Shown in pieces: positions 8,016 through 29,183 of a stretch of 30,978 nt of DNA (the stretch's first letter is position 1; the number at the start of each line of letters is the position of its first letter). The position numbers and the translations under genes are program-made. The stretch is from Candidatus Helarchaeota ASGARD archaeon Hel_GB_B (GTDB lineage: Archaea; Asgardarchaeota; Lokiarchaeia; Helarchaeales; HEL-GB-B). The stretch is taken from NCBI GenBank assembly GCA_005191425.1, contig SUPR01000036.1, forward strand, positions 1-30,978. Direction: 5' to 3'. Under the pieces are notes generated by a model. It was not told where the DNA came from. It saw nothing but the letters and a program-made list of their open reading frames with translations, and did not search any database.

Positions 8016-9092
8016 TTGGACTGTATATGTATGGATGAAGAAATAAAATATAAGAGGTCAAATGCCAACAAAAATGAGAAGATTTTTGAAGTAAGAAAAA
8101 TCCAGCTCACTGGTGGTTGTACCTATCTTATCAGCCTTCCAAAACAGTGGGTAAAAAAAATTAAATTGGACGCAGGAGACCAAGTTGCAATTTTTGAGAG
8201 CGATATTTACGAAGGTAGCCTGGTCATAAACCCGCAATACGTAGAAACAGATAGGATTAAGGAAATAACTATTAAAATTATTGACGATAAAGGTTTTGAT
8301 CTAAGCAGAGAAATTCTCGCCAAATATTTATATGGCTATGACTTGATCAATATAGAATCAGACCAGAATATCTCTCGAGACCAGCGAGAAGAAATCAAGA
8401 AAATTACACAGAGACTTATAGGCATAGAAATTGTCGAGGAAAGCTCTAAAGTAATAAAAGTTCAATGTCTAATTTCACCCATAGCATTACCTGTTGAAAA
8501 AACGATTGATAGAATTTTTTTAATTGTTTCCCAGATGTTAAAAGATGCAGTACACGCAATAATTACAAATGACGTCGAATTGGCTAAAAATGTGGGCGAC
8601 AGAGACGATGAAGTCGACAGGTTATATTTTTTATGCGTGAGGCAGCTAAGGTCGTCAATCCAAGACGCAATCATAGCCAAATATAGTAAAATCACACCAC
8701 TAGAGTGCTTAGACTATAGGGTCATCGCAAAAGCAATTGAAAATGCAGGAGACCACATAGTAGAGATCAGTAGAATATATAAAAATGTAATTGCAGCTAA
8801 TAACATAAAATTACCTGACAATGTCAAGACCAAGTTGTCCAAGCTGTCTTCTATGATTTTTAATTTAATGAATAAGGCCAAAAAAGTTATGAAATCTCAT
8901 TCAATGGAGCTTGCACATGAAGTTATCGAGCCAGACCGGGGACTAATTAAGGAAGAATCTGAAAACCTCAAAATAATAATCAATTCTCAAAAAACTGAAA
9001 ATTGGACATTGCCTATCGATACAATTTTAGACCTCTTAATAAAAATCTCGGATATTGCTGGTGTCGATATTGCAGACCTTGTAATGGGTTAA
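8016..9092 (+). CDS. phoU: Archaeal phosphate uptake regulator (AbrB-like N-terminus + PhoU domains)
   Basis: RKIQLTGGCTYLISLPKQW (AbrB/MazE type), RDDEVDRLYF, IENAGDH. Likely start is ATG at 8031. Confidence 0.88.
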   Translation: MDCICMDEEIKYKRSNANKNEKIFEVRKIQLTGGCTYLISLPKQWVKKIKLDAGDQVAIFESDIYEGSLVINPQYVETDRIKEITIKIIDDKGFDLSREILAKYLYGYDLINIESDQNISRDQREEIKKITQRLIGIEIVEESSKVIKVQCLISPIALPVEKTIDRIFLIVSQMLKDAVHAIITNDVELAKNVGDRDDEVDRLYFLCVRQLRSSIQDAIIAKYSKITPLECLDYRVIAKAIENAGDHIVEISRIYKNVIAANNIKLPDNVKTKLSKLSSMIFNLMNKAKKVMKSHSMELAHEVIEPDRGLIKEESENLKIIINSQKTENWTLPIDTILDLLIKISDIAGVDIADLVMG

Positions 9093-9289
9093 ACTAAAAA
9101 AAATTAAGGGATATTTAACCACTCATTATTTCAATTTACAATTAAACACATATTTTGTTATATTATACTTCCAACTAAAAGCGACTTAATTTTAACGGCT
9201 AAAGCATTTTATGGAGAGAATAAAATAAATATTTTAATTATAAATCATGCATTAATCCAATATTTTTTGAATGCTAATAAAAAGTTGGA

Positions 9290-9643
9290 TTATTGCAATT
9301 TTCAATATCTATTTTAAATATTTTATTCGGTCGTTGGAGATGGAACAATATTCCACGTTTATTTGGAATAGAAGAAGCGGAAATAAGTTAACACCAGTAT
9401 TTTAGATGAAAATAGGAAGTTTTAATTCATTTGCTAATTTGATAAATTTTTGAATCTGTTTCGAATTTTCTGACAATACCACAAAAACTAGTGCCTTTCT
9501 TTCCAAATTTCCTATTAGGTTTTGGTCACTATTATAGCATATTAAAATTTCAAGTTCATCAGAAACATATTCTTTTCCTACAATTTCTTCTAATCTTTAT
9601 ATATCTCTTTTTTATTATCTAATTCTGGGAATAGATCACTCAT
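9290..9643 (-). pseudogene. Decayed N-terminal part of a GlcD/D-lactate-dehydrogenase-like FAD-binding oxidoreductase
   Basis: Hand translation across frameshifts from ATG 9643: MSDLFPELDNKKEIY/LEEIVGKEYVSDELEILICYNSD...LVFVVLSENSKQIQKFIKLANELKLPIFI*NTGVNL/SASSIPNKRGILFHLQRPNKIFKIDIEN. This follows the FAD_binding_4 N-terminal pattern (LxEIVG..V, LAN..K.P..PRG.GT.L, GGI..DL.RMNKI..ID.EN). End approximate. Confidence 0.78.
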
Positions 9644-9653
9644 TTAACAATAC

Positions 9654-10510
9654 TCACTCCAAATATTCAGTAATATCATAAATTTCCAAATTTTTAATTT
9701 CATCGGATTTTACATCCTATTTTTTTCACTAAAGAGGCATACACTTAAAAAGTATTTCTGATTTTATTGATTTTGTTTCAATCAATTGTTATCATGCTGT
9801 TTAGTTCGCAAAATCATTATAAGCTGATTGGACACCACTCATGCATCACAACACCAAGCATTCTGTTTTATTTGATCCATTTCCATAAAATTTCCACTTG
9901 CTGTTATTTCAATTATTTTGTGTGGTGCTTCAGATACCTAAAAATATCTCACTAAATGGTATGGATCGTAATATGTGATAATTTTATTTAATTTTTTCTT
10001 TTTTTTTCTAAATTTCTTTAACATATTTTAATAGAAATTCAGTAATATGAAGTACTTCAAAATTATACTCTTCAAATTTTGGAGATATTAATTTAAAAGT
10101 GCGATAACAGTCTGCATATGAAAAAATAATTTTTTCAAATTTTTCAATCACATCTAAATTATGGCGCATTTAGTTAATACCTTCTTTTTTTGTTCCGTCA
10201 TAAATAATGGACTACCACAGCACCATTCTTCAGTCCCTAATAATGAATGTTTAATTCCGAAATAATTTAATTATTTAATAGTAGAAATTGCGATTGGTCT
10301 TTTTCTATATGAAAATGTATACCCTACAAAATAAGCGATTTTAGCACCATCATGCTCTTTTGATATTTCTTTGAGATTGTCAAACATATTTTCATGAAAC
10401 TCATCATATAGATTGAGATTTTTAATAACACTAGCCCGCAAATCTTTCATATTCTGGTAATGATTCTTCATTTTCAGCAATATTATATATGAATTCTAGT
10501 AGTATATCGC
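9654..10510 (-). pseudogene. Decayed two-CCG-domain Fe-S protein (HdrD/GlcF-like)
   Basis: Hand translation: KIAYFVGYTFSYR...STIK*LNYFGIKHSLLGTEEWCCGSPLF (CCG at 10222-10214) / FSYADCYRTF...EVLHITEFL / ITYYDPYHLVRYF*VSEAP...NAWCCDA* (9862-9839) / GVQSAY...ILLSVCLF / EIYDITEYLE* (TGA 9656-9654). Multiple stops and frameshifts; 5' limit approximate. Confidence 0.88.
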
Positions 10511-10981
10511 AGGTCTAATGATTAAATAATTCTGATACTTTTCACTTTTTAAATAATTTATTTCTAAGAGAGTGATATAATTATAGGTTGAATGTAAATA
10601 ACAAATAATAAAAAAGGGTGTCGATAAATTAGGGGAAATATAACGAGGAGTAGTAATAAAAATAAATAAAATGAGTGATAAATGAAGAGAAAAAAATTTG
10701 AGTAGTAAAGAGTTATTATAAAGAGAATAGAGAATCAAAATAATTTTAGAAATTCAATAAAAAAGGAATTGAATGATTTTAAGAAAGTTATGAATATAAA
10801 TGTATAATACCCAATAAATGAGATAAGAAAATAAATTAAATTTATTTATATAAATGATTAAAAAATTGAAAATCGGAAAGGAAAGAGAATTAAAAATAAA
10901 TTTCATTCTTAATATTGAGTAAAACTTTATAGAAAATAGAATATTATAGAATATTATTATTAATTTTCAATTTCTAAATTT

Positions 10982-11887
10982 CTATTTGAAAATATCCCTT
11001 TTTAATTTAATAAATTGAATATTTAAATATTTACAAACACTTTCATAATCATTATAATTTGATGATAAAATTTTATCGCTTGAACTTGAATCTGTAATTA
11101 AGAAAAAATCACCAATATCCCTACATAATTTATAAATGTTATTTTGGCATGGGGGTGTTCTATTTAAATTAGAATTCAAAATAATTAATGAACCAATCCA
11201 ACTTGGTTTAATTATTGGAGAATCAAAATCTTCATACAAATTAATAATATCTTTAATTATATTTTTATGATCTTTAAACCAATGAACAATAATTTTTTTT
11301 TCTTTACACATAAATCTTGAGCAACCATATCCAATATTTTTAATTGGGGCATTTATATGATTGACATATCCACTTAGATCAAAATTAGCCCATTGACAAT
11401 CGATCTTACTCTTTCTGATATTAAAAATTGGATCAATAAAAATTGCGTCGAAATTGGATATATATGTATATAAATGAAGTAAAATAGTTCTTAAAGGATT
11501 TCTGATTGATCTACCTGAAGAAATATCGGTAATGAGATTTTCTAAACTTTCAAGAATCATATTTTGAACAATATTTTTTATACGTTCTTTTCTTCTTGTT
11601 CTCTTGATGGGTAATAATCTATTTAAAATGTCTTTAAAATGTTGTATATAGTTTTTTAAATTCAAATTATTCTCATCATTAACATCTTCCAATTTTTTTA
11701 AAAAAATGTTGTAAGAAAAAACAAGAGCATCAAGCATTGTTCTGTATAATTCACCTTTAATAAAAGTTGTAATGCCTATTTCTTCTGTTCTATTTCTACA
11801 ATCTTTTATTAAAGAATCGATAAAATCTCGTTCTTTTTTGGTACCCCAATATCTTATTATAACCACATCAGTATCAAATAATATCAT
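10982..11887 (-). CDS. Expanded PIN-domain protein (putative RNase/toxin)
   Basis: N-terminal ILFDTDVVI (first PIN Asp), TTFIKGELYR (conserved Glu), C-terminal IGDFFLI...KILSSNYNDY (last acidic residues); 301 aa, about twice a VapC. Confidence 0.65.
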   Translation of the reverse strand: MILFDTDVVIIRYWGTKKERDFIDSLIKDCRNRTEEIGITTFIKGELYRTMLDALVFSYNIFLKKLEDVNDENNLNLKNYIQHFKDILNRLLPIKRTRRKERIKNIVQNMILESLENLITDISSGRSIRNPLRTILLHLYTYISNFDAIFIDPIFNIRKSKIDCQWANFDLSGYVNHINAPIKNIGYGCSRFMCKEKKIIVHWFKDHKNIIKDIINLYEDFDSPIIKPSWIGSLIILNSNLNRTPPCQNNIYKLCRDIGDFFLITDSSSSDKILSSNYNDYESVCKYLNIQFIKLKRDIFK

Positions 11888-11935
11888 TTTTTAATTTTCC
11901 AAATTTTTTCATGATTTTTAATATTTTTTATAAAT

Positions 11936-11969
11936 ATGTATTAAAATTATTAATGTATTAAAATTATTA
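11936..11969. repeat. Perfect 17-bp tandem duplication (ATGTATTAAAATTATTA x2)
   Basis: Direct reading: 11936-11952 equals 11953-11969, in the spacer immediately upstream of the PIN gene. Confidence 0.9.
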
Positions 11970-11987
11970 TTTAACCCTTCTTAGTAA

Positions 11988-13061
11988 TTATCTAAGAGGC
12001 GTAATATACAATAAATTTTTGTTAAAATCTTTTATAATTTCAAGTAAATTTTTCTTAATAGCCTCATTTTTTTCATTTGTTTGAAAAATTGCATGCATAT
12101 GTATTTTTTTAATGAGAGATAATGGAATTTCCCTATTTTTATTATACTTTAATAATAATTCAATATGACTCCAATATTGTTCTAAAGCTATATTTTTAGC
12201 CATATAGCTATAATCTGCATAATTTATAGATGCTTGTAAGATTTCGAAATATAATTTTTTATAATTTCTATTTTCTATAAAATTAGACATTTCATTAGTA
12301 ATTTTTCTCATCCAATTTATTTTGCCTTTAGTTATAAATTCATTATCAGTTGGATAAATATATTTACATATCTGATTAATTTGTGTTTCACTTGAAAATG
12401 CAGAAAGAGCAGCAGAATCCGGCAATATAATAAATAAAGTTCTCAATAGTGAGATAAATTTATTGTTATCTACTTCTTGAAGAATTTTTTCTTTTATAAG
12501 AGATTTTGATGCTCCTTTTGGATTGAGAATATATAATAATCCAGTTAATTCTTTCCAATTTATATTTCTTAATAATAATTCTTTTAACTTTAAAAAATCT
12601 GTCCATTTATTAATTGATAAATTCTTACTTTTTGCTAATTGCTCATAAATATTTGAAAATGTCTCGTATAATTGTTTATTAACATTTTTATCAATAGAGC
12701 TTATCGTATATTCATTTAAATCATCCCTACTGAATTGTGTTTGCATTTTAATAAAACCAATAGAGGCCAATTCTTGAGTAATATCTTGTATCCATGCTGC
12801 GTACTGACCATAATAATGTGGTTTTAATGATTTTATCTCATCTGGATTAATTATTTTTCCAAAATCTAAAACTGTAAGGAGAAAATCAATAAATTTAGTT
12901 AATTGAATATCTAATATATATCCGTCTAATCCTAAAAAAATTGATAAAATAAAATCTCTTTTGGAGAAATTTTTGATATTTATATGATCGTTTAAACTAA
13001 TCTTAATAATTAATCCCTCCTTAAGAATTTTTTCCAGATTTTCGGTGCAGAACCTTTCCAA
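11988..13061 (-). CDS. DUF4065/Panacea (SocA/YwgA-like) winged-helix protein with unknown helical C-terminal region
   Basis: IQLTKFIDFL...LKPHYYGQYAAWIQDITQELASIGFI resembles the LqKl.yf...F....YGP(Y/F)s..l...l..L...G.I pattern of this wHTH family. The start may lie near 13010 rather than 13061. Confidence 0.5.
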   Translation of the reverse strand: MERFCTENLEKILKEGLIIKISLNDHINIKNFSKRDFILSIFLGLDGYILDIQLTKFIDFLLTVLDFGKIINPDEIKSLKPHYYGQYAAWIQDITQELASIGFIKMQTQFSRDDLNEYTISSIDKNVNKQLYETFSNIYEQLAKSKNLSINKWTDFLKLKELLLRNINWKELTGLLYILNPKGASKSLIKEKILQEVDNNKFISLLRTLFIILPDSAALSAFSSETQINQICKYIYPTDNEFITKGKINWMRKITNEMSNFIENRNYKKLYFEILQASINYADYSYMAKNIALEQYWSHIELLLKYNKNREIPLSLIKKIHMHAIFQTNEKNEAIKKNLLEIIKDFNKNLLYITPLR

Positions 13062-14317
13062 TTTTCAAGTTTTTCAATAAATAAATCATCGGATAAATTT
13101 TGAATTTCAATCCATTTTATTAAACAATGTTCCTTTATTTTTTTAGTTTGACTACTATCTGATAGTCCAAGAGTTTTTATACCCATTGAAATTTTTTCTC
13201 CTTTCTTTTGTCTAATTCTAATTTCACTTCTTTTTTTTAATAATTCAGGTATTGTTAAATTAACTTTTTCTTTTATCTCATTACATGCCTTACAACTACA
13301 ATTAAATGAATTAAATAGCTCATTATTTCTTAATAATTGGAACTCAGATACAAAAGTTCCATATTGCGGATGATAAATATGCCTAGTTCTTCTTCCATAG
13401 TTTAATATAAAGTTATGTTGAGCCCATCCATCCACTTTTACACAGCAATTCCTAAAAATTTCGGGAATAAGCCTGTTTATAAAAATACCTCCATATCTTA
13501 AATAAAATTTCAGATTTTTGAAATTAATAAAAGAATTAACAACTTCATTTAACTTATTAATATCATTCATTTTAGCATTAAATTCTGAGAAATCAATAAA
13601 CCATATCCAGACTTTTTTAAATTTAGAATCAATTAAAGAGAGTAAATCATAAATTTTTTGATTTTTCCAAGAATTTATATTAGTAGATATTAAGGGAATG
13701 CATAACTTATTTTTAAATTTAGAAGGTGCATTTTCTAATATTTTAATATTACAATCAATACTATTTTTAAAGTTTTCTGTATCATTTTCTAATATTATCG
13801 GGATATAAGGTAGTGTAAATGCTTCGAGTTCGGTATGTATATGCTTTTTATTATTACCGATTAACAAATATCCTGTAATATCCCTATGGACTCTTCCTAA
13901 ATTTTCTCTCATAAAAACATCTATATTATTTTGATAATTCAACCAATTTTCAATTATATCAAAATTTTCATTAAAAAGTATTGTTTCGATAATTCCTTCT
14001 AAACATGTATTTTTTCCTAATGCCTCAAAAAAGGTCTTAACTTTAGTTGATAGTTCTTTTTCTTCACTAATAGATTCATTATATTTCTCTTCGATTTTAG
14101 AAACAAATTCTTGATCAATCAATTTCCAAGAATCGCTATCTATTAATATTTTTTTCCCAAAACTATAAACTAGCTCTAAAATACTATCTTGATCTTCTCG
14201 AGCTATAAGATCTAAAGGTAAGATAAACCCTTTAATATTATTTTCAATTAAATTCTTATTCAATACTAATACTTTTAGGTTTATTTTATTATTAATCTCT
14301 ATCCAATTTTCCATCAA
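13010..14317 (-). CDS. TGT-like (tRNA-guanine-transglycosylase fold) protein with C-terminal CxCxxC...H zinc site, function unknown
   Basis: FNCSCKAC...KEHCL zinc motif near the C-terminus, KILIDSDSW where TGTs have DSGG, FYLRYGG and RHIYHP. The ORF itself is secure; the fold call is inference. Confidence 0.45.
   Translation of the reverse strand: MMENWIEINNKINLKVLVLNKNLIENNIKGFILPLDLIAREDQDSILELVYSFGKKILIDSDSWKLIDQEFVSKIEEKYNESISEEKELSTKVKTFFEALGKNTCLEGIIETILFNENFDIIENWLNYQNNIDVFMRENLGRVHRDITGYLLIGNNKKHIHTELEAFTLPYIPIILENDTENFKNSIDCNIKILENAPSKFKNKLCIPLISTNINSWKNQKIYDLLSLIDSKFKKVWIWFIDFSEFNAKMNDINKLNEVVNSFINFKNLKFYLRYGGIFINRLIPEIFRNCCVKVDGWAQHNFILNYGRRTRHIYHPQYGTFVSEFQLLRNNELFNSFNCSCKACNEIKEKVNLTIPELLKKRSEIRIRQKKGEKISMGIKTLGLSDSSQTKKIKEHCLIKWIEIQNLSDDLFIEKLENWKGSAPKIWKKFLRRD
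13015..13022 (-). promoter_or_regulatory. Shine-Dalgarno-like AAGGAGGG inside the last codons of the TGT-like gene
   Basis: Minus strand reads AAGGAGGGAT-TAA-TT; the TAA is the upstream stop and overlaps an in-frame ATT of the next ORF. Confidence 0.4.
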
Positions 14318-15540
14318 ATATATTGCTTCCTTACTATATTATTTCTACTAAAAAAAATCACCTTACTATTTATAAGAATATAGGTTTAATCACTTTTATA
14401 TTTTTTAGAAATAAATTTTGTCTTTTTATTAGCTAATTAATTTCATAAATCATTAACTGTATAATAGTAAATTATAATTTATAATATTATTTAATTAAAG
14501 TTCGATGCATCGACCAAATGAGATGATATAACGAAAATGATTTGATAGAAAAGAAGATCTATACAAGAAGATAAATGAAATAAAGCAAAATTTAATTGAA
14601 AAAACTTTAAAAATAAGTGAAAAATGTAATATATGGATATTTTACCGATATTTCATGATGAATGAAATAACCAAACTTTTAATAATATGGGGCTAACATT
14701 ATATATCGAAAATCAAGCGAAATTAGAATTATACAAATAATAATAAAAAATATCAGACGTCTGAATTATATAAAAAAAATAAAAGAAGATGAATTTAAAA
14801 TAGCAAAATAAAACTTGTTTATAATAAAGAATAAAGAAATTTTAAGGTCAAATTTATATTCAATTATAGCGAATTTTTTAAATTTTAAATACATTTTTCA
14901 AATTTTTTTTAGCCTTTGATCAAATTACAAATTTGGAGTAGAGTAAAAAAAACTGAAAATTATAAATTACCGATATTGAAGATAAATAGATTTTAAGGGA
15001 TTAAATGACGAATTCAAATTTTTTTCAAAGTTTCCTATTAAAATTGAAAAAATATGATGAAAATAAACTAAAATCGTAGAATTTTTTAATTAAATCTTAA
15101 AATGAAATTGGAATTTTTTGGTATTTTTTAGGAAACAAATATTCGGATTGCTTGTTATATTAGATAACATAACTATATTTTTTCAATATTTTTAAGGTTA
15201 TTTATGTAAATAATTTAATTTATAATATAGATATTAATACCAATGGGAGATTAAAAAAATATTATTAGAAATAATTTGTAGGTCTTTATTTCATATAAAC
15301 TCATTTTTTATTATTTAATAATAATATAACGAATTATTTTTAGTATTTTTGTTTTTAATATAACCAAAATAAATTAAAGTAAAAAATTAAACTTATAATA
15401 AAAAGGAATTAAATTACAAATAAAAAGGAATTGAGATAAAAAATTTAATAATAAAAACTATACATTATTAACAAATAAATTTTTAAATTGCTCAATGAGA
15501 TTTTTAAAAAATATGGTATCTTTCTTTAAGGTGTTTATTA

Positions 15541-18369
15541 ATGCATGATGCCAATGAGATTAAAAATGATTACTATTACCAGTTAACAAAAGATGAAGTT
15601 TATAAAAAACTTAATACTTCTGAAAAAGGACTTAATTCAGACGATGTAGAATTAAGACTGGAAAAATATGGGCTAAATGTCCTCGCAGAAAAAAAGAGAC
15701 GATCAATTTTTAAGATGTTTTTGGGCCAATTTAAAGACATTTTAACGATCCTTTTAATTGTAGCCACTGTGATTTCATTATTTTTATATATAATGTCCGG
15801 GTTTACGGATTATGAAAGTCTTATTGACGCGATGGTCATCCTCGGAATTTTGATTGCAAATGGGCTAATAGGTGTCAGACAAGAATATAAGTCCGAAAAA
15901 GCACTAGATGCTTTAAAAAAACTATCTGCACCCGAAGCAACTGTAGTTAGAGACGGGAAAATGGTGAGAATAACTTCTAAAGAAGTAGTCCCTGGTGATT
16001 ATATGATCCTACAGACCGGAGATAAAGTAGTTGCAGATGTAAGACTTATCAAAGCTATGAACCTAAAAATTGACGAGTCTATGTTAACAGGTGAATCAGT
16101 TTCGGTCACAAAAACAGACATACCAATTAAAGAACCAAATTTACCATTAGCAGACCAAAAGAACATAGCATTTTCCGGCACCATTGTGACATACGGGATG
16201 GGCGAAGGAATAGTTTTTGGTACGGGGATGAACACAGAGATGGGCAAAATTGCTGAAATGATCCAGACGGCTGAAGAAAAAACCACCCCGCTCCAGAAAA
16301 AATTGGCACAATTTGGAAGGTGGCTAACGATATTAATTGTAGTAATATGTATAATAGTTTTTTCAGTGGGGATTTTCAGGACATTTATTAATAAATATCC
16401 AGCCACATTAACTTTTGGTGATATTGAACAATTATTTTTAGCTGCAGTAGGACTTGCGGTAGCTGCAGTACCAGAAGGACTAGCAACTGTTGTAATAGTT
16501 ACGCTCAGCCTTGGAGTCTCCCGAATGGTCAGTAAAAATGCACTTGTAAGGAAGTTATCTGCCGTAGAAACTTTGGGGTGCGCTACAGTTATTTGCTCGG
16601 ATAAGACCGGTACAATTACCCAAAACGAAATGACGATTAGAAACATATACTTAAACAATAAATTATATTCAGTTAAGGGAATTGGATATACACCAGTAGG
16701 AGAGTTCGAAATTAATGGAAACGTAATTGACCTCAAAGAAGACCCACATTTGAAAATGTTATGTAAAATAGGTATATTATGTAATGATGCAGAACTAATA
16801 TATAATGAAGATGAGAAAATTTGGGAAATATTTGGGGACCCAACAGAAGCTTCATTGTTAGTATTAGCCGGTAAGATCAATATGTGGAAAAAGGATATTT
16901 TAACAGAATATCCAAGAATTAATGTGATCCCATTTGACTCCTCAAGAAAAATGATGTCTACGATCCATAAATATGCTGATAACAAGTTTTATGCATTTGT
17001 CAAGGGCGCTCCAGAAAATATTATCAAGCGGTGCACGAGGATCCTTGAAAATAATACGGTCAGCCCATTAACAGACGAAAAAAGAGATGAAATCTTAAAA
17101 ATTAACGAAGATTTGACCAGAAAAGCCCTTAGAAATCTAGCCCTTGCCTATAGAGAAATTGACCCGAATAAATACAATGTGGATGAAGTGGACTCCGAAC
17201 ATATAGAAAAAGACCTGATATTTGTTGGTCTGGTGGGGATGATCGACCCCCCAAGAAAGGAATCGAAACTTGCATTAGAAGAGTGTCGGTCAGCCGGTAT
17301 GAAGGCGGTCATAATTACTGGAGACCACAAGTTGACCGCAAAAGCTATTGCTAACGAATTGGGGATGATAGAAGAGGGCGATATAGCCTTGACTGGTAGT
17401 GAAATTGACCAGATGAGCGACGAACAGTTTAATGACATAGTCGAACGGGTAAAAGTTTTTGCCAGGGTTTCTCCGGAACACAAGGTGAAGGTGTGTGTCG
17501 CGCTTCAAAATAAAGGGAACATAGTTGCAATGACGGGAGATGGTGTGAATGATTCGCCGGCGATAAAAGCTGCAGATATTGGAGTAGCGATGGGCATATC
17601 AGGGACGGAGGTCACTAAAGAAGCGGCGGATATGACTTTAATGGACGATAATTTTGCCACGATCATTAATGCAGTCAGGGAGGGGAGAGGGATATATGAT
17701 AATATCCGTAAATTTATATTTTACCTGTTGTCAAGTAATATCGGAGAGATATTGACGTTGTTTATAGCCATTTTAATTGGTTTTGAAGGGTATATCCATG
17801 GAGAATATACGCTCGCACTTCCGCTTGTCCCAGTCCAGATACTCTGGATTAACTTAGTAACTGATGGCCTCCCGGCGACTGCGTTAAGTGTTGAACCAAA
17901 AGACCCAGACATAATGCAGCGCCCACCAAGAGACCCAAAAGAGCAAATAATCAACAGGAGGTTAGCTGTCCACATGGCAATTATAGGAATAATAATGTGT
18001 GTTGGTACTCTTTCTGTTTTCTATTTTGGGCTCCTGAATTTTAATGGGTATCCGTTAGACACATATGTTACTTACGCCAGAACCATGTCATTTAACACCT
18101 TGATGATGTTTCAGATGTTTAATGTAATGAGCTGCCGTTCGTTAAAGCTGCCAGTATTCAAGTTAAAGTCGCATAATAAGGCATTATACGTGGCAATTTT
18201 ATCCTCAATACTCCTACAATTATTTGTTGTTTATGTGCCATTTGCTCAGCCGGTTTTTTATTGTATGGCACTAAATGGCGTGGACTGGCTTATTATTGTT
18301 TCTGTTTCGTCCACAGTTTTTGTCTTTAATGAAATATACAAATATTTCATGAGTAGAAATAATAAATAA
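15541..18369 (+). CDS. Ca2+-transporting P-type ATPase (P2A, SERCA-like)
   Basis: TGES, VAAVPEGL, CSDKTGT, KGAPE, DPPR, TGD, MTGDGVNDSPA, SSNIGE and WINLVTDGLPA motifs. Confidence 0.95.
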   Translation: MHDANEIKNDYYYQLTKDEVYKKLNTSEKGLNSDDVELRLEKYGLNVLAEKKRRSIFKMFLGQFKDILTILLIVATVISLFLYIMSGFTDYESLIDAMVILGILIANGLIGVRQEYKSEKALDALKKLSAPEATVVRDGKMVRITSKEVVPGDYMILQTGDKVVADVRLIKAMNLKIDESMLTGESVSVTKTDIPIKEPNLPLADQKNIAFSGTIVTYGMGEGIVFGTGMNTEMGKIAEMIQTAEEKTTPLQKKLAQFGRWLTILIVVICIIVFSVGIFRTFINKYPATLTFGDIEQLFLAAVGLAVAAVPEGLATVVIVTLSLGVSRMVSKNALVRKLSAVETLGCATVICSDKTGTITQNEMTIRNIYLNNKLYSVKGIGYTPVGEFEINGNVIDLKEDPHLKMLCKIGILCNDAELIYNEDEKIWEIFGDPTEASLLVLAGKINMWKKDILTEYPRINVIPFDSSRKMMSTIHKYADNKFYAFVKGAPENIIKRCTRILENNTVSPLTDEKRDEILKINEDLTRKALRNLALAYREIDPNKYNVDEVDSEHIEKDLIFVGLVGMIDPPRKESKLALEECRSAGMKAVIITGDHKLTAKAIANELGMIEEGDIALTGSEIDQMSDEQFNDIVERVKVFARVSPEHKVKVCVALQNKGNIVAMTGDGVNDSPAIKAADIGVAMGISGTEVTKEAADMTLMDDNFATIINAVREGRGIYDNIRKFIFYLLSSNIGEILTLFIAILIGFEGYIHGEYTLALPLVPVQILWINLVTDGLPATALSVEPKDPDIMQRPPRDPKEQIINRRLAVHMAIIGIIMCVGTLSVFYFGLLNFNGYPLDTYVTYARTMSFNTLMMFQMFNVMSCRSLKLPVFKLKSHNKALYVAILSSILLQLFVVYVPFAQPVFYCMALNGVDWLIIVSVSSTVFVFNEIYKYFMSRNNK

Positions 18370-18403: not shown

Positions 18404-21400
18404 TCATTTACTTATTTTAACGGCTTTACTGTCGTATATAGGGCCGATTATATTGAAAAACAGGTTGATGTGTCCTTCTTGGACAGATATTATGCCGCTA
18501 ACAGCTTTATCGTCTTCTTCGCCTGGTGCGATTAAGACTTCTTGTTTGTCTCTAAACGCGCCGTAGAAATTTTCTTTGATGTTAAATATGAGGATATTGT
18601 CTTTATCGAGTAATTTTATGACTTTTTCGGATTTTATTAAGGTATCGGAGAGGTTGGTATATAACCTAACGTCAATTGCGGGTTTAATTTTATTTAATTC
18701 ATCAAAAGGGATGTTATTTGGGTCGGGGATCAATAAGATTATGGAAGATGTTGTTCTAGAGATCATGTCCTTGATATGTTCAATAACGGCGCTGAGTGTC
18801 TTCAATTCCCAGGTGCCACTTTCTCTTAGCTTTTGTTTGTTTTGTAGTTCTTGCCAGACATAACGTAGCAACAGCTCGGAGTCGGATGTTTCTTTTTGGA
18901 GTTCGTTGATTTGGTCGATAAAAATTTTGGAAGTTTTGGACACCTGGTCAGATATCACTTTAAGAAATTCAGAGGTAATGGTCGTGAAAATACCTTGGGA
19001 CATGTCTTTTTTGTTTTGAAGTTCATTTTTTTGGTCTTCAATAAATTTTGAGATCTTTTTTTGGATATCAATTAATAAATTATTGATATTTTGCTTTTGG
19101 TCGTTGATCCTTATTTCAATGTTTTCCTTAGAATTATTTAGGAGGAGTTGATTTTGGTCGGCATGGTTTTTTATCGACTCATCGATGGCTTCTATTAAAT
19201 TAGAGTTCAAGTTTTGGTATTCTTCCGTAATCCACTGAACGGAATTTTTGACGGACTCGCTAAACAATTTTTGGATTTTTTCGATATTCTGGGCGTTTTT
19301 AGTCAATATATTTTCCATTTTAGACTGAGGGTCTTTAATACCTTCCTTTAACTTACTAGAAGAAGATTCAATGGAAGATTCAAAAGTATCTCGGACATCT
19401 TTCATTAATTTAATTCCAGACACGACATTCTCATTATAAAGGGAGATCGACTGGTTTTGGAGGGTTCGTATAAATTCCTTGATGTTGTTTCTGAGGGTAT
19501 TAAATGAGTCTGTGAATAACGAAGAGAGTTCTGTTGCACCTGTTTTTAAATTGGAGATATATTCAGAAAAATTGGCATTGGAAGTGTCTTTTAGCGACAA
19601 GAAAGAAGTGGCAGATTTGTTCTTTAACTCCACGAGAGTTCCAGTTAAATTTTTATTGATATTCATGAGGACGTTGTTGAATAATTTACCATGAGTATTG
19701 ATCCTTTTTTTGATGGTGCTTTCCATTTTATCGATCGTGCTAATAAATTCGGATTTAATTTTGCTTAATTTTTGGGTGAAATCGGTTAATTTGTCTTGAA
19801 AATCTTTTATAGTATTATCAGAATATGTATTTCCGATTATTTCAACTTCGTTAATTAAGGACTCATTTTTTTGGTTAAAAGAGATGTTGTATGATTTGAT
19901 TAACTCTTCAATTTTTTGAGAATATGTTTCGTTTAAATTTCTATTTTCATCAGATATTGAAATAATTGTACTTGTTATATTCGATATCATTTCGCTGACA
20001 TTTGACTTTATAAATTCCAGGCTTTTATTTAGGGTCTTATCAAAGTCAGTAAGTAGAGTGGACAACAGTTCTTCTGAATTTGTAATTTCTCTTGTTAATT
20101 CTACAGATATTGCAGACTTAATATTTTCAAGCAGTAAATTATAGTTAGACGTCTGTTCGGTAATATTTTTGTTCAAGTTGTCCTCAATTATTGTCGCAAT
20201 TTGGGATATGATATTGAATTGGTTTTGAAATTCTTCTTGAAGTTTAGTCTCGAACCTTTTGGTAGTGTCAATAATGGTTTGAATTCTTTTTTCATATAAT
20301 TTTTTAAAGTTTTCTTCTAAATTAGAGAGTTTTTCCCGGGAGGTGGAAGCCTGTAAGTCGATCTCCTTAAAAATTCTTTTGACCAGGTTTTCTATGCCGT
20401 CCTTAAATAGTGAGATTTGGTCATTGAGCATGTTTTGGCTATCTTGGAGGAAGGAAATAGATTCAGAGTTAAATGACCTGGTATCCTCCAAAATATGTTT
20501 TATTTCTCCATTGATGACTTCAGAAAATCTAGTTTGTGTTGGAACAATATTGGTATTTACCAATTCTATTTGTGATTTAATTACATCCTTAAGTTCATCA
20601 TTTAATTTTATGAGTTTCTCTTGGAATTGTTTTTGAGTTTCTTCTGTTCTGCTTAAAATTTCATTTTTTAGCTTGTTTAAACCGGCACGAGCATTTGTCA
20701 GTTTAGTTTTCATGACTTCAGAAAATTCATTTAGGAAATTTTTTGCGGAGGACTCATACAATTCTACGTTATCTTTAAGGTTATCATTAAGATTTAACTC
20801 GAATTCTTTTGAAATATTGGAAAATTTTTCGAGGTGTTGTCCTAACCCATCGATGATACTTTTATTTAATTCATCAGATAAATTAATAATTGAAGTGTTG
20901 ATAAAAGTAATATTTTTCTTGAAATCCTTTTTGATGGTTTCAATATTCTTATTTAATGAATTAAAATATTCGCCAAATAATTCATTAACGCCTTGTTCTA
21001 TTGTGTCCGAAAACTCTATAAATTTATTTTTTCCACCAGATAAAGATTCAACCACGTCCTTATCAAAGTTTGAAATCATGTCATTAATTACCTTTAAAAG
21101 ACCACCGATTAGCTCAATTTCTTTTGTGTGCAAATTATCGATTTCGGTCTCAATAGTATTATGGATAGTTTCCATTACCTCGAGAAAATTATCATTTAAG
21201 GAAGAAGTTAACTCAAGGTTTTGGTTTAGTGCGCGTTCGATATGATTTTTTAATAGATTTTGTGTCTCATAAAAAATTTTATCGGCAGGTTCATTAAATT
21301 CTTTAACGAAATTTCGTTCCAATTTCTCGAGTTCGATGGAAGAATCTCGAAACGTATTTAAAAAATTGATAATCTTTTGAGTAAAAGTCTGACGGAGGTT

Positions 21401-22144
21401 AATTACGTCATTGGAGAAATTATTTAGGACGTCAATAAAAATTGTGGTCGCACTCTCAATAGCCTTTTGTGTGTCATTTTTACTCATCTGAATAAATTCA
21501 TCGATATGCATGTTTAAATCATTTTCACCTTTTCTTGAAATATCCCGAACTTCGTTAGTTAAATTTGAGATCTTGTTAACAATTTCGCTCTTAATATCGG
21601 ATAATATTTTATCAAATTCTTGTATATATTTTTCTGCAAATGATTGGAGTTCTTTATTGATTACATTTAAATGTTTGGATATTTCAGCTTTTGTAATTTT
21701 AAAATTATCTTGAATATTTTTGTTAAGGAGTTCAGATTTACTTGTAATAGACTGAATGTAAGAGTCGAATTCACTTTTTACTGTATCAATCTTATTATTT
21801 GCGATATCCCCAATTTTCTGTTCTGTTTCTACCGCAATACTATTAATTTTATTTATAATTTTACTGATATTTTGTTCTAATTTATTTAATTTTTCTAAAT
21901 ACCCTTTATATGGAGGGAGTGCCTGGTAATTTTTAATTAACCCTGGGAGTTCGACAATTAAATTTTTCTTTTTCAACTTTTCGATACACAAAGTGAGGCT
22001 CAAATATTCGAGTTTAGAGTAAGAACTTATCTCGCCCATAGTCAATGGGCCATAATTTAAAATAGTTAGGTAAGTAATGACATCAAATTCATCTAGATTT
22101 AAAATGTCCATTAATACTTTGTTAATATGGGGTTTCTCCATCAA
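18404..22144 (-). CDS. Giant TrmB-like regulator: N-terminal HTH, about 1000-aa helical/coiled-coil insert, C-terminal TrmB-type effector domain
   Basis: LNLDEFDVITYLTILNYGPLTMGEIS...KLKKKNLIVELPG..KNYQALPP (TrmB HTH); C-terminal IEHIKDMISRTTSSIILLIP; the middle is amphipathic and Pro-poor. SD-like GAGGTGG upstream of TTG/ATG. Confidence 0.72.
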   Translation of the reverse strand: MMEKPHINKVLMDILNLDEFDVITYLTILNYGPLTMGEISSYSKLEYLSLTLCIEKLKKKNLIVELPGLIKNYQALPPYKGYLEKLNKLEQNISKIINKINSIAVETEQKIGDIANNKIDTVKSEFDSYIQSITSKSELLNKNIQDNFKITKAEISKHLNVINKELQSFAEKYIQEFDKILSDIKSEIVNKISNLTNEVRDISRKGENDLNMHIDEFIQMSKNDTQKAIESATTIFIDVLNNFSNDVINLRQTFTQKIINFLNTFRDSSIELEKLERNFVKEFNEPADKIFYETQNLLKNHIERALNQNLELTSSLNDNFLEVMETIHNTIETEIDNLHTKEIELIGGLLKVINDMISNFDKDVVESLSGGKNKFIEFSDTIEQGVNELFGEYFNSLNKNIETIKKDFKKNITFINTSIINLSDELNKSIIDGLGQHLEKFSNISKEFELNLNDNLKDNVELYESSAKNFLNEFSEVMKTKLTNARAGLNKLKNEILSRTEETQKQFQEKLIKLNDELKDVIKSQIELVNTNIVPTQTRFSEVINGEIKHILEDTRSFNSESISFLQDSQNMLNDQISLFKDGIENLVKRIFKEIDLQASTSREKLSNLEENFKKLYEKRIQTIIDTTKRFETKLQEEFQNQFNIISQIATIIEDNLNKNITEQTSNYNLLLENIKSAISVELTREITNSEELLSTLLTDFDKTLNKSLEFIKSNVSEMISNITSTIISISDENRNLNETYSQKIEELIKSYNISFNQKNESLINEVEIIGNTYSDNTIKDFQDKLTDFTQKLSKIKSEFISTIDKMESTIKKRINTHGKLFNNVLMNINKNLTGTLVELKNKSATSFLSLKDTSNANFSEYISNLKTGATELSSLFTDSFNTLRNNIKEFIRTLQNQSISLYNENVVSGIKLMKDVRDTFESSIESSSSKLKEGIKDPQSKMENILTKNAQNIEKIQKLFSESVKNSVQWITEEYQNLNSNLIEAIDESIKNHADQNQLLLNNSKENIEIRINDQKQNINNLLIDIQKKISKFIEDQKNELQNKKDMSQGIFTTITSEFLKVISDQVSKTSKIFIDQINELQKETSDSELLLRYVWQELQNKQKLRESGTWELKTLSAVIEHIKDMISRTTSSIILLIPDPNNIPFDELNKIKPAIDVRLYTNLSDTLIKSEKVIKLLDKDNILIFNIKENFYGAFRDKQEVLIAPGEEDDKAVSGIISVQEGHINLFFNIIGPIYDSKAVKISK

Positions 22145-25996: not shown

Positions 25997-27046
25997 ATGG
26001 TTATAAAAATTATAATGACAGAAGTACATGGAGAAATACTCAATTCCACAAATTCTTTAAAGTTACAAAATGTTATAAAAAGTTCCAATTTCTCAATACA
26101 TTTTTTAAAAGGGAAAATAGATGCCAAAGTCCTAAGAAATTATCATGTTTTAATTATTGGTGGTCCTACAGTACCATTAGACCTCTCAGAAATTTTAGCA
26201 GCTGAGAAATTTGTAAACCAAGGGGGGTTTCTAGTTTTATTGTCAGTGGCGGGAGGTGATTTAAGCAACAATAATTTATCAGAGTTGAGCAGGAGATTTG
26301 AATTTGAATTTAACCCAGATTATGTAGAGGATTATAAGCATAATATCAATAATAACCCGCGACTACCTATTATTCGTTATATTAAGAAAGGTTTCTCAAT
26401 AACAAAAAGTGTTAACAAGATAGTATTTACTGGTTGCTCAATATCAGTCTTAGATGACAGCGTAAAGGGCTTTTTATATACGGATAAAGATGCATTACCA
26501 TATATGGCTACTTTAGGAGTAGTTTCTCTAGAAAAAAACATTATTGGACTTTCAAGTTCATCTATTTTCAATGATACGCTTCTTGATAAATTTGATAATA
26601 AAAGATTATTACAAAATATTCTTAATTATATAGAATCGATTTTTAAAAAAATTGAAAAGGAATTACGAGTAAAACACAAAAATTTAACCCCATTGAGGGC
26701 ATCTAAAATTATAGAACACCTAATAATATTAAATTCTAAAAAACTTGAAGAAATAGATAAATTAATAGACAAGATGTGGAGTAGAATTATTGATCAAATA
26801 CCAAGATTGGAAAATAAAATAATATTAGAGAATTTAGAGAAAAGTTATAAATTAATTCTTCAAAAAATTGATTTGCTGGACTTCGAAGTGGGGCAAAAGA
26901 ATTCTGAATTTAATTTTCTTGGTGAAAAATATCAAGAATCAGTACAACAAGCAATGAATAGGTGGTATGAAACAGAAGCTGAAAAAAGAGAGAAATTAGA
27001 TATGATCAAGAACAACTTACTTACAAGAATTAATAATTCTAATTAA
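25997..27046 (+). CDS. GIFT/DUF4350-type (IFT52/GldG-like) domain protein + helical C-terminal domain, paralogue 1
   Basis: YHVLIIGGPTVPLDLSEILAAEKFVNQGGFLVLL...NNLSELSRRFEFEFNPD and SSIFNDTLLDKFDNKRLLQNILNYI match the GIFT pattern; no signal peptide. Confidence 0.72.
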   Translation: MVIKIIMTEVHGEILNSTNSLKLQNVIKSSNFSIHFLKGKIDAKVLRNYHVLIIGGPTVPLDLSEILAAEKFVNQGGFLVLLSVAGGDLSNNNLSELSRRFEFEFNPDYVEDYKHNINNNPRLPIIRYIKKGFSITKSVNKIVFTGCSISVLDDSVKGFLYTDKDALPYMATLGVVSLEKNIIGLSSSSIFNDTLLDKFDNKRLLQNILNYIESIFKKIEKELRVKHKNLTPLRASKIIEHLIILNSKKLEEIDKLIDKMWSRIIDQIPRLENKIILENLEKSYKLILQKIDLLDFEVGQKNSEFNFLGEKYQESVQQAMNRWYETEAEKREKLDMIKNNLLTRINNSN

Positions 27047-27163
27047 ATATAAAAATATCACTAGTATAAAAAGGAATAAATAGTGAAGTCCTACATTTTA
27101 TTATATTAATATTAAATTTACCAAATTCTTATTTAATATAATTGCCTAAAATGATTTGAAAAA

Positions 27164-28261
27164 ATGAACTACAGAATAGTTTTTGATGAAACCCATCATG
27201 AGATTTTCTCGAACAAAAACTGTAAAAAACTTTCAAATTTATTAAAAAAGCATTCGTTTATATCATTTCGACTTTTAATTGGTCCAATTAAACCAGATAA
27301 TTTAACTGAAGAAGAATATTTATTTATAGGTGCCCCAAAGGATTCATTTTCTCATGAAGAAGTCGAAACAATTATTAATTTTGTGAGGAACGGAGGTTTT
27401 ATAATAATTGTTTGTAATTCTATGAGAAATAATTCGTTCAATATTAATTCTCTCGCAAAACATTTTGGCATCAGGTTTGATTTCAATCATGTAAAGGACT
27501 CAAAAAACCACTGGAAAAGTGCAGAATATTTTCCTTTAATTACTAACTTCAATAAGAGCCACTTAACAAAAAATGTGAATAAATTATATTATTCAGGAGC
27601 GACTTTAACATTAAACAGAAATGATTGTTATCCGATTGCATTTACTTCTAAAGATGCTGAGCCACCAAATAGTCCTATAATTGCAATATCAAGTAAAGGG
27701 CATTGTATTGCAATTGGTGGTTCTACAATGTTTTATGATGATGAATATGGTATTTCTGCAGGTAATAATTCTGTATTTGTTTCTAATCTTTTTAAATATC
27801 TAATTTGGGCTAAAAAGTATCCTGATAAGGTCATTGAGTACAGACAGATATCGCCGCGTCCAGATTTTTCAACCCGTAAAATACCATTGAAAAAAGCATC
27901 AGAGATTTTAAATAAAAAGATTAAAGAAATATACAACGATTATAATAAAATATTCGATAAAATAGATAAATTAATGGACAATATCATTAATATAATACAA
28001 ACTGAGAGAAATAAGGATACAGAAGCAAAATTAAAAAGCAATTATAAGGAGATACAAGATCAAATTCAATCATGGCAGATATATTTGTTTGAAGTGATTG
28101 AAAAACTGGAAAATGACGTAAATAGGCCCTTAGAATTTGTAAAAATAAAAAATGAAAAATTGAATGAATTTTATGTTAAGGAAAGTGAAGTAATAGAACA
28201 TTTGGATAGAATTTATGGGCGGTTAAGTTATTATATTAAACATCCAGAAGCAATTCCATAG
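27164..28261 (+). CDS. GIFT/DUF4350-type (IFT52/GldG-like) domain protein + helical C-terminal domain, paralogue 2
   Basis: RIVFDETHHE, LFIGAPKDSFSHEEVETIINFVRNGG, NINSLAKHFGIRF, YYSGATL, PPNSPIIA, GGSTMFYDDEY...NN; no signal peptide. Confidence 0.78.
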   Translation: MNYRIVFDETHHEIFSNKNCKKLSNLLKKHSFISFRLLIGPIKPDNLTEEEYLFIGAPKDSFSHEEVETIINFVRNGGFIIIVCNSMRNNSFNINSLAKHFGIRFDFNHVKDSKNHWKSAEYFPLITNFNKSHLTKNVNKLYYSGATLTLNRNDCYPIAFTSKDAEPPNSPIIAISSKGHCIAIGGSTMFYDDEYGISAGNNSVFVSNLFKYLIWAKKYPDKVIEYRQISPRPDFSTRKIPLKKASEILNKKIKEIYNDYNKIFDKIDKLMDNIINIIQTERNKDTEAKLKSNYKEIQDQIQSWQIYLFEVIEKLENDVNRPLEFVKIKNEKLNEFYVKESEVIEHLDRIYGRLSYYIKHPEAIP

Positions 28262-28404
28262 TTATTTCTTAAAATTTTCTAAATTATAAATTTATAAATA
28301 TTTTACAATTTAAAAAAGATTTTTTAATGACCTTTTAGGTAAATTTATTAAAATTAAAATTTTATATTTTAACTTCAAACAACAATTTATTAGGCGTATT
28401 AGGA

Positions 28405-28773
28405 TTGGTCATAGAAAATAATTATGAGGCTATCTTACAGAAATTAATTGACCAGACAAAAATTTATGGAGCTTCACTTAATACAATAGATGGTCTGCCG
28501 ATTATCTCGATATTTAAAAATAATAAATCCATTGAAGATGCATTTGTCTCAGCCATATCATCGGCAATGACTATGCATTCAGAGAAGGTAATGTCGGAAT
28601 TTGAATGTGGAAACCTTGATAATTGTAAAATACAAGGAGAGAATGGTCAAGTATTAATATTTAAGATTAACTCTTTAATTCTTTTGGTTCTAGCTCCTAA
28701 ATCCATTTCTCAAGGAATCCTTCATTTAGGTGTAAAGAGTTGTATCAGAGAAATTAAAAAATTAAACTCATAA
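28405..28773 (+). CDS. Roadblock/LC7 (MglB-like) domain protein
   Basis: GASLNTIDGLPIIS...VSAISSAM...GNLDNCKIQGENGQVLI...LLVLA, 122 aa; TTG start. Confidence 0.85.
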   Translation: MVIENNYEAILQKLIDQTKIYGASLNTIDGLPIISIFKNNKSIEDAFVSAISSAMTMHSEKVMSEFECGNLDNCKIQGENGQVLIFKINSLILLVLAPKSISQGILHLGVKSCIREIKKLNS

Positions 28774-28865
28774 TTATTAATATACAAACAATTTTTTTGT
28801 TCAATTATTGGAATTATTCAATTAATGGTTTTTAAAATTGACAAAATTAAATTGAGGAATTTACA

Positions 28866-29183
28866 ATGAGTGAAGATGAAATATCCGTAGATTATGTGTG
28901 TGATGCTACACAATTGACTTGGGTAGAAGATAATTTGATAAATGAGTTAATGACATTTTTAGAGGATAAAATCCGAGATTATGGCGGTATTGTCGAAATA
29001 GATGGTAAGAAGATCATAATTGGATTTACTTCGGATGAAAAATTGAGTAAAAGAGCGATTAAAACATACATTAAAAGATTTTTATATAAATATGAATTAT
29101 TAGACCGTCTTAGAGTTATATCATCGGGTGCAAATGAATATATGATCCATAAATTAAAAGATGTAACCGTTAAAAACTTATAA
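28866..29183 (+). CDS. rpl22e: Ribosomal protein eL22 (L22e) homologue
   Basis: LSKRAIKTYIKRFLYKYELLDRLRVIS...EY parallels the eukaryotic eL22 C-terminal pattern (FSKRYLKYLTKKYLKK..LRDWLRVV....Y, recalled from memory); 105 aa. Confidence 0.82.
   Translation: MSEDEISVDYVCDATQLTWVEDNLINELMTFLEDKIRDYGGIVEIDGKKIIIGFTSDEKLSKRAIKTYIKRFLYKYELLDRLRVISSGANEYMIHKLKDVTVKNL

Follow-up and report, generated by a model that had tools for sequence, protein, structure and literature searches.

A divergent zinc-motif barrel of probable TGT descent in a rare three-gene cassette of Asgard archaea

Why would an archaeon that already encodes its own tRNA-guanine transglycosylases (TGTs) carry a further, barely recognisable relative of these enzymes in a segment that a genome of the same genus lacks? 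The question is raised by contig SUPR01000036.1 of Candidatus Helarchaeota archaeon Hel_GB_B, a stretch of 30,978 nucleotides that we call the window, in which a minus-strand open reading frame (ORF), here gene A, is followed by two smaller genes, B and C (Table 1). Our results indicate that gene A very probably encodes a true, very divergent member of the TGT superfamily. It is neither a housekeeping tRNA enzyme nor a DpdA, the DNA preQ0 insertase of the Dpd system (PMC10164549). On balance, we favour the reading that gene A is a branch of the superfamily that lacks the catalytic aspartate triad and retains the zinc motif, and that it heads a rare, horizontally acquired Asgard cassette, A-B-C, acting as a tripartite toxin-antitoxin or abortive-infection module.

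Fold and relatives of gene A

The ORF of gene A has 435 codons when counted from a TTG at 14317; the codon that follows, an ATG at 14314, is the probable start, and the database copy (P0001) has 434 residues. We verified all motif coordinates by translation, and every motif quoted in an earlier reading of this DNA, made from the sequence only, lies in this ORF where that reading had put it.

Relatives of the protein are few. The models PF01702 and TIGR00430/432/449 and those of PADLOC gave no match to gene A at E-values up to 0.1-10, phmmer against the sequences of the PDB returned noise, the family profile matched none of them, and a protein atlas search led to unnamed clusters only. An exhaustive HMMER search with a two-sequence profile over 1.84 billion representative proteins found five relatives, and once iterated word-index searches had been run and 400 genomes of the phylum searched in six frames, the set comprised 22 full-length sequences, whose identity to the window protein drops to 16-20%. 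Each belongs to the same archaeal class or stems from a metagenome with an Asgard name, and the homologues bear Asgard labels in public records. The distribution is patchy, with gene A present in 8 of the 400 Asgard genomes. Searches of phages and plasmids by tblastn gave no match to gene A, scans of viral and metagenome contigs with one family profile (A1) revealed no relatives, and a tblastn of ArcTGT against phages, in which phage DpdA was sought, returned ordinary tgt genes only.

The sequence-only reading had proposed a TIM barrel of the TGT superfamily and had suggested structure prediction as the check, and the predicted fold agrees with it. A first AlphaFold model, built on an alignment of six sequences, was too poor to be used, with a predicted local distance difference test score (pLDDT) of 51 and uninformative Foldseek matches. 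The model built on the 22 sequences reached a pLDDT of 83.5 and a predicted template-modelling score (pTM) of 0.84, and has eight strands alternating with helices. We compared it with 48,161 representative PDB chains using VIA-align, an unbiased search that is independent of Foldseek. ArcTGT came first (Z 17.9 over 297 residues, root-mean-square deviation 4.0), and ranks two to five were taken by the Zymomonas TGT (Z 16.2), QTRT2 (15.0), DpdA (15.0) and Cap10 (13.4); generic TIM barrels begin at Z 12.4 and go down from there. A second structural look gave ArcTGT a Z of 18.3. Foldseek against the PDB placed TGT entries at the top by template-modelling score (TM), with 0.43-0.47 over about 470 columns, as against about 0.3 for other barrels. 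The nearest structures are thus those of the TGT superfamily, and the protein is predicted to be a (beta/alpha)8 barrel with a C-terminal hairpin and a Cys3-His zinc subdomain.

Profile comparison points the same way, although a usable hhalign match was obtained only in local mode on the C-terminal half. When the C-terminal halves of the gene A family and of 31 Asgard TGT and ArcTGT sequences were aligned, 127 columns were colinear (P 1.4e-4, probability 53%). This alignment pairs RYGG with RYLMGxG on strand 7, VKVD with GxDxFD on strand 8, GRRTR with PTRxGR, and the CxCxxC motifs with each other. Of the two profile relationships that had been suggested earlier, the one to TGT was recovered as this weak profile-profile match, and the one to the phage Beta protein was not.

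Active site and zinc subdomain

According to the work on DpdA, this enzyme and TGT share three invariant aspartates in the active site, which act as general acid/base, base-binding residue and nucleophile (PMC10164549). The sequence-only reading had considered the Asp residues of IDSD and VKVDG as candidates for catalytic aspartates and inferred an enzyme with changed base specificity. The family does not support this idea. We assigned barrel positions by the strand order of the model, so that the residue equivalences are inferred from that order. At the end of strand 3, where TGT and DpdA have the DSGG motif, the window protein has IDSDSW and most clades have non-acidic residues; D60 and D62 occur in just two sequences, the window protein and a relative with 48% identity to it. 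In TGT and DpdA the base-binding Asp is at the end of strand 4; the gene A family has an invariant Pro170 there and no conserved acidic residue. Just after strand 8, at the place of the nucleophile, D296 of VKVDG is Asp in 16 of the 22 sequences and is replaced in the other six (Ser in five, Asn in one). No alignment register yields three invariant Asp, and the family as such therefore lacks the canonical triad. As far as aligned sequences can tell, the gene A family has lost the aspartate triad of TGT and DpdA.

What the family has kept lies elsewhere. The residues invariant in all 22 sequences are P170, F233, W239, D242, G277 and three Cys, and E245 is nearly so, being Asp in one member. D242 and E245 are the sole conserved acidic residues and sit together, as D242-x-x-E245, at the end of strand 6, and G277 is at the end of strand 7. 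To judge from the model, the conserved residues probably cluster on the catalytic face of the barrel.

The zinc motif fared better than the triad. CxCxxC is invariant in all 22 members down to 16-20% identity, and each has a later His, so the motifs of gene A are beyond chance. In the short forms of the protein (400-414 residues) this His lies at +28, mostly within YHNYHSF, which recalls the HN of TGT. In the long forms it lies at +47 to +58, and the window protein has it in KEHCL, with 51 residues between C345 and H397. The published zinc spacing of DpdA is CXCX2CX22H (PMC10164549). Proteins of the TGT superfamily typically have CxCxxC with a His about 22-26 residues later as their zinc site. 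The Cys3-His motif proposed earlier, a predicted zinc site, is thus conserved and, in the short-form homologues, has a TGT-like spacing.

Since the short forms have a TGT-like spacing, the 51-residue spacing of the window protein implies an insertion of about 20-30 residues, which the model predicts as a helix (356-371) followed by a loop. The net charge of the zinc tail is +3 to +10 in long forms and near neutral or acidic in most short forms. The basic helix noticed by the sequence-only reading is hence a real insertion in the zinc subdomain. Its interpretation as a nucleic-acid-binding helix does not extend to the family, because the insertion is basic in some clades only and the short forms are often acidic.

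Cassette partners and genomic setting

The operon partners B and C, which the sequence-only reading missed, hold most of the functional information. The order A-B-C is found at seven loci, the window and six others. Genes A and B overlap by 52 nt in the window and usually by 8 nt elsewhere, and BLAST chains connect all copies of gene B with one another, as they do all copies of gene C. Scans of both genes against Pfam, NCBIfam and PADLOC gave nothing above noise.

The PIN domain encoded by gene C is interrupted by an insertion of about 190 residues that contains Cys. The window copy has no direct match to a hidden Markov model (HMM), and the assignment runs through a BLAST chain from the window copy to that of locus L006 (8e-22) and on to that of L047 (4e-12), which matches the Pfam PIN model (PF01850) with 25.8 bits for a cut-off of 23.6. 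Among the PIN positions, D5 is kept in every copy with a called N-terminus, E46 and D260 are invariant, and N277 takes the fourth position. In the gap of 100 nt between B and C, a 17-nt unit is perfectly duplicated in tandem (ATGTATTAAAATTATTA x2, 11936-11969), which may be a regulatory or a slippage feature.

A small gene of about 140 codons precedes gene A at five of the seven loci. Its invariant residues E35, D44, E62 and K64 form a PD-(D/E)xK pattern, and its profile weakly matches phage P4 cII/sce7726 (hhalign P 0.0099). The window has no remnant of this gene upstream of gene A.

In the window the cassette occupies a low-GC segment. The genes that flank this segment, PhoU-like and P-type ATPase, are about 290 bp apart in a genome of the same genus (G001) and 6.5 kb apart in the window, and 9105-15591 is therefore an insertion or deletion polymorphism. 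The ends of the island have no flanking att-like repeats, only AT-rich chance repeats. Its parts on either side of the cassette (9105-10980 and 14318-15540) contain no ORF of at least 100 codons, and a piece at about 9952-10135 shares 69% identity with another contig (C104) from the genome of the same genus; these flanks fit decayed genes brought in with the island. The left border is formed by a plus-strand gene (8016-9092) for a MazE/AbrB-type N-terminal domain fused to a PhoU domain.

In another genome (G005), the cassette adjoins a type III restriction-modification system and a DpnII-like restriction endonuclease. Directly downstream of it (L006:12254-18000) lie genes for a DpnII/MboI-like restriction endonuclease, an N6/N4 DNA methylase and a type III Res-like helicase-endonuclease. 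The surroundings of this cassette are a defence-island setting.

Could gene A be part of ordinary 7-deazaguanine metabolism? Our Pfam scan covered most of the larger ORFs of the window, and our NCBIfam scan six of these. These scans revealed no genes of preQ0 synthesis (queC/D/E, folE) and none resembling dpdB-K, and the earlier statement that this is not a standard Dpd system stands. Outside the window, the genome carries an ArcTGT (TgtA, 483 bits) and a queuine Tgt of bacterial/eukaryote type (TIGR00430, 441 bits). Gene A is therefore not the housekeeping TGT. A six-frame search of the genome with the QueC model gave short partial N-terminal matches only, which, together with the two TGTs, hints at salvage rather than synthesis of 7-deazaguanines.

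The source genome is 3.5 Mb long with low GC, and its window also includes Cdc6/Orc1, TrmB, eL22, Roadblock and GIFT-domain genes. Among them, 18404-22144 (minus strand) encodes a protein of 1246 residues that combines an N-terminal TrmB helix-turn-helix with a long apolipoprotein-like helical region, and 25997-29183 (plus strand) encodes two tandem IFT52-GIFT-domain proteins, then a Roadblock/LC7 protein and eL22, all of them eukaryote-like signature genes.

Table 1. Features of the cassette and of related loci (window coordinates unless a locus is named)
Feature	Residues	Coordinates	Strand	Remark
Low-GC segment (about 22%), about 6.5 kb		9105..15591	.	holds the cassette; missing in same-genus genome
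Gene C, PIN domain split by Cys-containing insertion	D5, E46, D260, N277	10982..11887	-	301 aa
Gene B, weakly Panacea/SocA-like N-terminal region		11988..13061	-	357 aa; conserved partner
Gene A, probable TGT-superfamily zinc TIM-barrel protein		13010..14317	-	ORF, model, structural matches, homologues
IDSDSW	59-64	14126..14143	-	end of predicted strand 3, place of DSGG(F/Y)Q in TGT
D242-F-S-E245, candidate remodelled active site	242-245	13583..13594	-	C-terminal end of predicted strand 6
RYGG	274-277	13487..13498	-	
D296 in VKVDG	296	13430..13432	-	just after predicted strand 8
R309-R-T-R312	309-312	13382..13393	-	hhalign-aligned to TGT PTRxxR segment
CSCKAC = CxCxxC (C340, C342, C345)	340-345	13283..13300	-	invariant; hhalign-aligned to TGT CxCxxC
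Basic helix and loop insertion, about 20-30 aa	356-383	13169..13252	-	long-form clades only
H397 of KEHCL, candidate fourth zinc ligand	397	13127..13129	-	His downstream in 22/22 members
Small upstream gene copies		L045:9448-9891; L046:5202-5603; L047:9642-10082; L048:9587-10009; L007:7673-8086		
TGT loci of the own genome		L002:1438-2616 (contig C150); L003:1465-3099 (contig C111)		

Possible function and relation to known systems

The A-B-C cassette is probably an undescribed toxin-antitoxin or antiviral module, for which we infer the following division of labour. The split PIN nuclease of gene C would be the toxic effector, and the product of gene B would inhibit it at the protein level or serve as its adaptor. 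Gene A would use its TGT-type pocket and its zinc subdomain to bind nucleic acid or a nucleobase-bearing ligand; its role would be that of a sensor or a regulator, and it may carry out a new reaction directed at bases. In place of the triad, the family has kept D242/E245, an acidic pair on strand 6 of the predicted catalytic face, and the basic RRxR segment. A bolder version of this scenario, which we put forward tentatively, is that gene A founds an Asgard-restricted TGT branch whose remodelled pocket (D242/E245 and mostly D296) has a new kind of activity towards nucleobases, for instance excising, exchanging or sensing a base carried by the nucleic acid of an invader, by tRNA or by a small ligand, and thereby switches the PIN nuclease on or off.

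Other explanations start from the same observations. Gene A may have no chemistry left and act as a catalytically dead adaptor like QTRT2, binding tRNA or other RNA and presenting it to the PIN nuclease, or sensing it. PIN toxins of the VapC type often cut tRNA, QTRT2 is itself a non-catalytic TGT paralogue and ranks among the top structural matches, and the protein has lost the Asp triad while keeping the zinc subdomain and the basic segment. We nevertheless consider this rather unlikely, since the C-terminal strand ends, where TIM barrels have their active site, carry D242, E245, P170 and G277 and so suggest a retained pocket with chemistry, and since the short forms are acidic. The opposite proposal, that gene A is an active DpdA- or TGT-like transglycosylase inserting 7-deazaguanine or another base into DNA or RNA from precursors made elsewhere, could draw on the fold and the zinc site, on D60/D62 and D296, the Asp residues with which strands 3 and 8, respectively, end in the window protein, and on the alignment of RRxR with PTRxxR. 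It is improbable in our view, because none of the three Asp positions is invariant in the family, as they are in TGT and DpdA (PMC10164549), and because neither a DpdB-like partner nor preQ0 genes occur in the window and the QueC matches in the genome are partial.

Two further proposals place gene A outside the TGTs proper. The TIM-B systems (phage P4 gop-beta-cII, PF14350) combine a TGT-related barrel, predicted to restrain the effector, with swappable effectors and a restriction endonuclease (10.64898/2026.10.19.760177). Membership of gene A in this family would fit the PIN effector and the small PD-(D/E)xK gene found at related loci, whose core aligns weakly with P4 cII. We rejected it as very doubtful: PF14350 matched none of six gene A family members at E-values up to 10, nor the own genome in six frames; hhalign of the family against an alignment of six Beta homologues gave P values of 0.37 and 0.42; and P4 Beta has no CxCxxC-His motif, whereas the profile match of gene A is to TGT itself. 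The most improbable proposal is an unrelated TIM-barrel hydrolase, for example a glycosidase-like enzyme, with a convergent CxCxxC. The two best Foldseek E-values do belong to a GH18-like protein and a dehydroquinase, and the D-x-x-E pair where a strand ends is reminiscent of motifs in glycosidases. Yet the TM-scores of these two matches are 0.28-0.29, as against 0.43-0.47 for TGT, VIA-align ranks no other barrel above any of the five TGT-superfamily representatives, and the zinc motif, the hairpin and the RRxR segment are colinear with those of TGT.

Several points weigh against the tripartite module of triad-less barrel, candidate antitoxin and PIN nuclease that we favour. Gene A is unrecognised by Pfam, NCBIfam and PADLOC, with nothing above noise, and over its full length the family has a weak hhalign match (P 1.1e-3, probability 21%) to the 31 TGT and ArcTGT sequences. 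The equivalences with the active site of TGT follow from a predicted strand order and a low-confidence HMM alignment. Whole short-form proteins often have an isoelectric point near 5, which speaks against direct nucleic-acid binding as a family-wide property. Gene B has no match to PF13274 (Panacea); hhalign against Asgard Panacea sequences gave a P of 0.026 over 31 columns, and its atlas leads, with scores of 0.79-0.82 and a TM of 0.3, are weak. Finally, the neighbours of the cassette at its other loci are housekeeping genes.

The TGT fold was long known from tRNA modification only, and DpdA (acting on DNA), Cap10 (on protein) and the predicted TIM-B regulators show that conflict systems have reused it. 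The gene A family would add a zinc-retaining, triad-less offshoot, known so far only from Asgard archaea, a group whose immune systems have received little study. If gene A is active, it would perform a new base-directed chemistry, and, should the switching reaction proposed above be real, the cassette would represent an immune or addiction module of a new kind, with base-flipping chemistry at its core. If gene A is inactive, it would be a prokaryotic analogue of the pseudo-enzyme QTRT2 that acts as a sensor. In both cases, the three genes make up a compact system that can be tested directly.

How does it compare with systems already described? With ArcTGT/TgtA (1IQ8/1J2B) and bacterial TGT (Zymomonas, 3UNT), gene A shares the (beta/alpha)8 barrel of its model, the hairpin and the CxCxxC...His subdomain, as well as RYLMGxG-like and PTRxxR-like segments, and the best Z scores are 17.9-18.3 for ArcTGT and 16.2-17.1 for bacterial TGT. 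It differs from them in that identity is 13-14% at most, PF01702 and TIGR00449 do not match, the Asp triad is not conserved, a helical insert of about 100 residues follows strand 3, PUA or C-terminal tRNA-binding domains are absent, and the gene belongs to a mobile cassette instead of being a housekeeping gene. DpdA (7UI4; PMC10164549) likewise places a TGT fold with a structural zinc site, and an insertion near that site, in a conflict system. Unlike gene A, it has the full set of three aspartates, depends on DpdB and ATP and is encoded in a cluster with preQ0 genes, and as a structural match it ranks below ArcTGT.

Cap10 (9NTN) is a TGT-family barrel of type IV CBASS that acts on protein, is reported to have no zinc site and is partnered by the QueC-like Cap9 and a CD-NTase (10.1101/2025.04.06.647259). 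It resembles gene A as a TGT-family barrel remodelled for a role outside tRNA, in its own case inside an immune operon; gene A has no Cap9 or CD-NTase partners and keeps the zinc motif. The closest published concept to the cassette is that of the TIM-B systems, in which a TGT-related barrel, predicted to regulate its neighbour, stands beside a toxic effector, often together with a gene of restriction-endonuclease fold. The cassette has the PIN protein as a candidate effector, and the small PD-(D/E)xK gene is present at five of its seven loci and not in the window. The partners differ: where TIM-B has Gop, HigB and others, the cassette has a PIN protein and a weakly Panacea-like one. By profile and zinc site the gene A family appears nearer to TGT proper than to TIM-B. 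For the B-C pair, the nearest model by analogy would be PanAT (PMC8832971). As in PanA-PanT and the VapBC PIN modules, a candidate toxin gene of PIN type stands right after a candidate antitoxin gene with tight spacing. Gene B falls below every PF13274 threshold, in contrast to PanA, and the cassette departs from both kinds of module by the insertion of about 190 residues that splits its PIN domain and by the constant presence of a third, larger gene with the predicted TGT fold.

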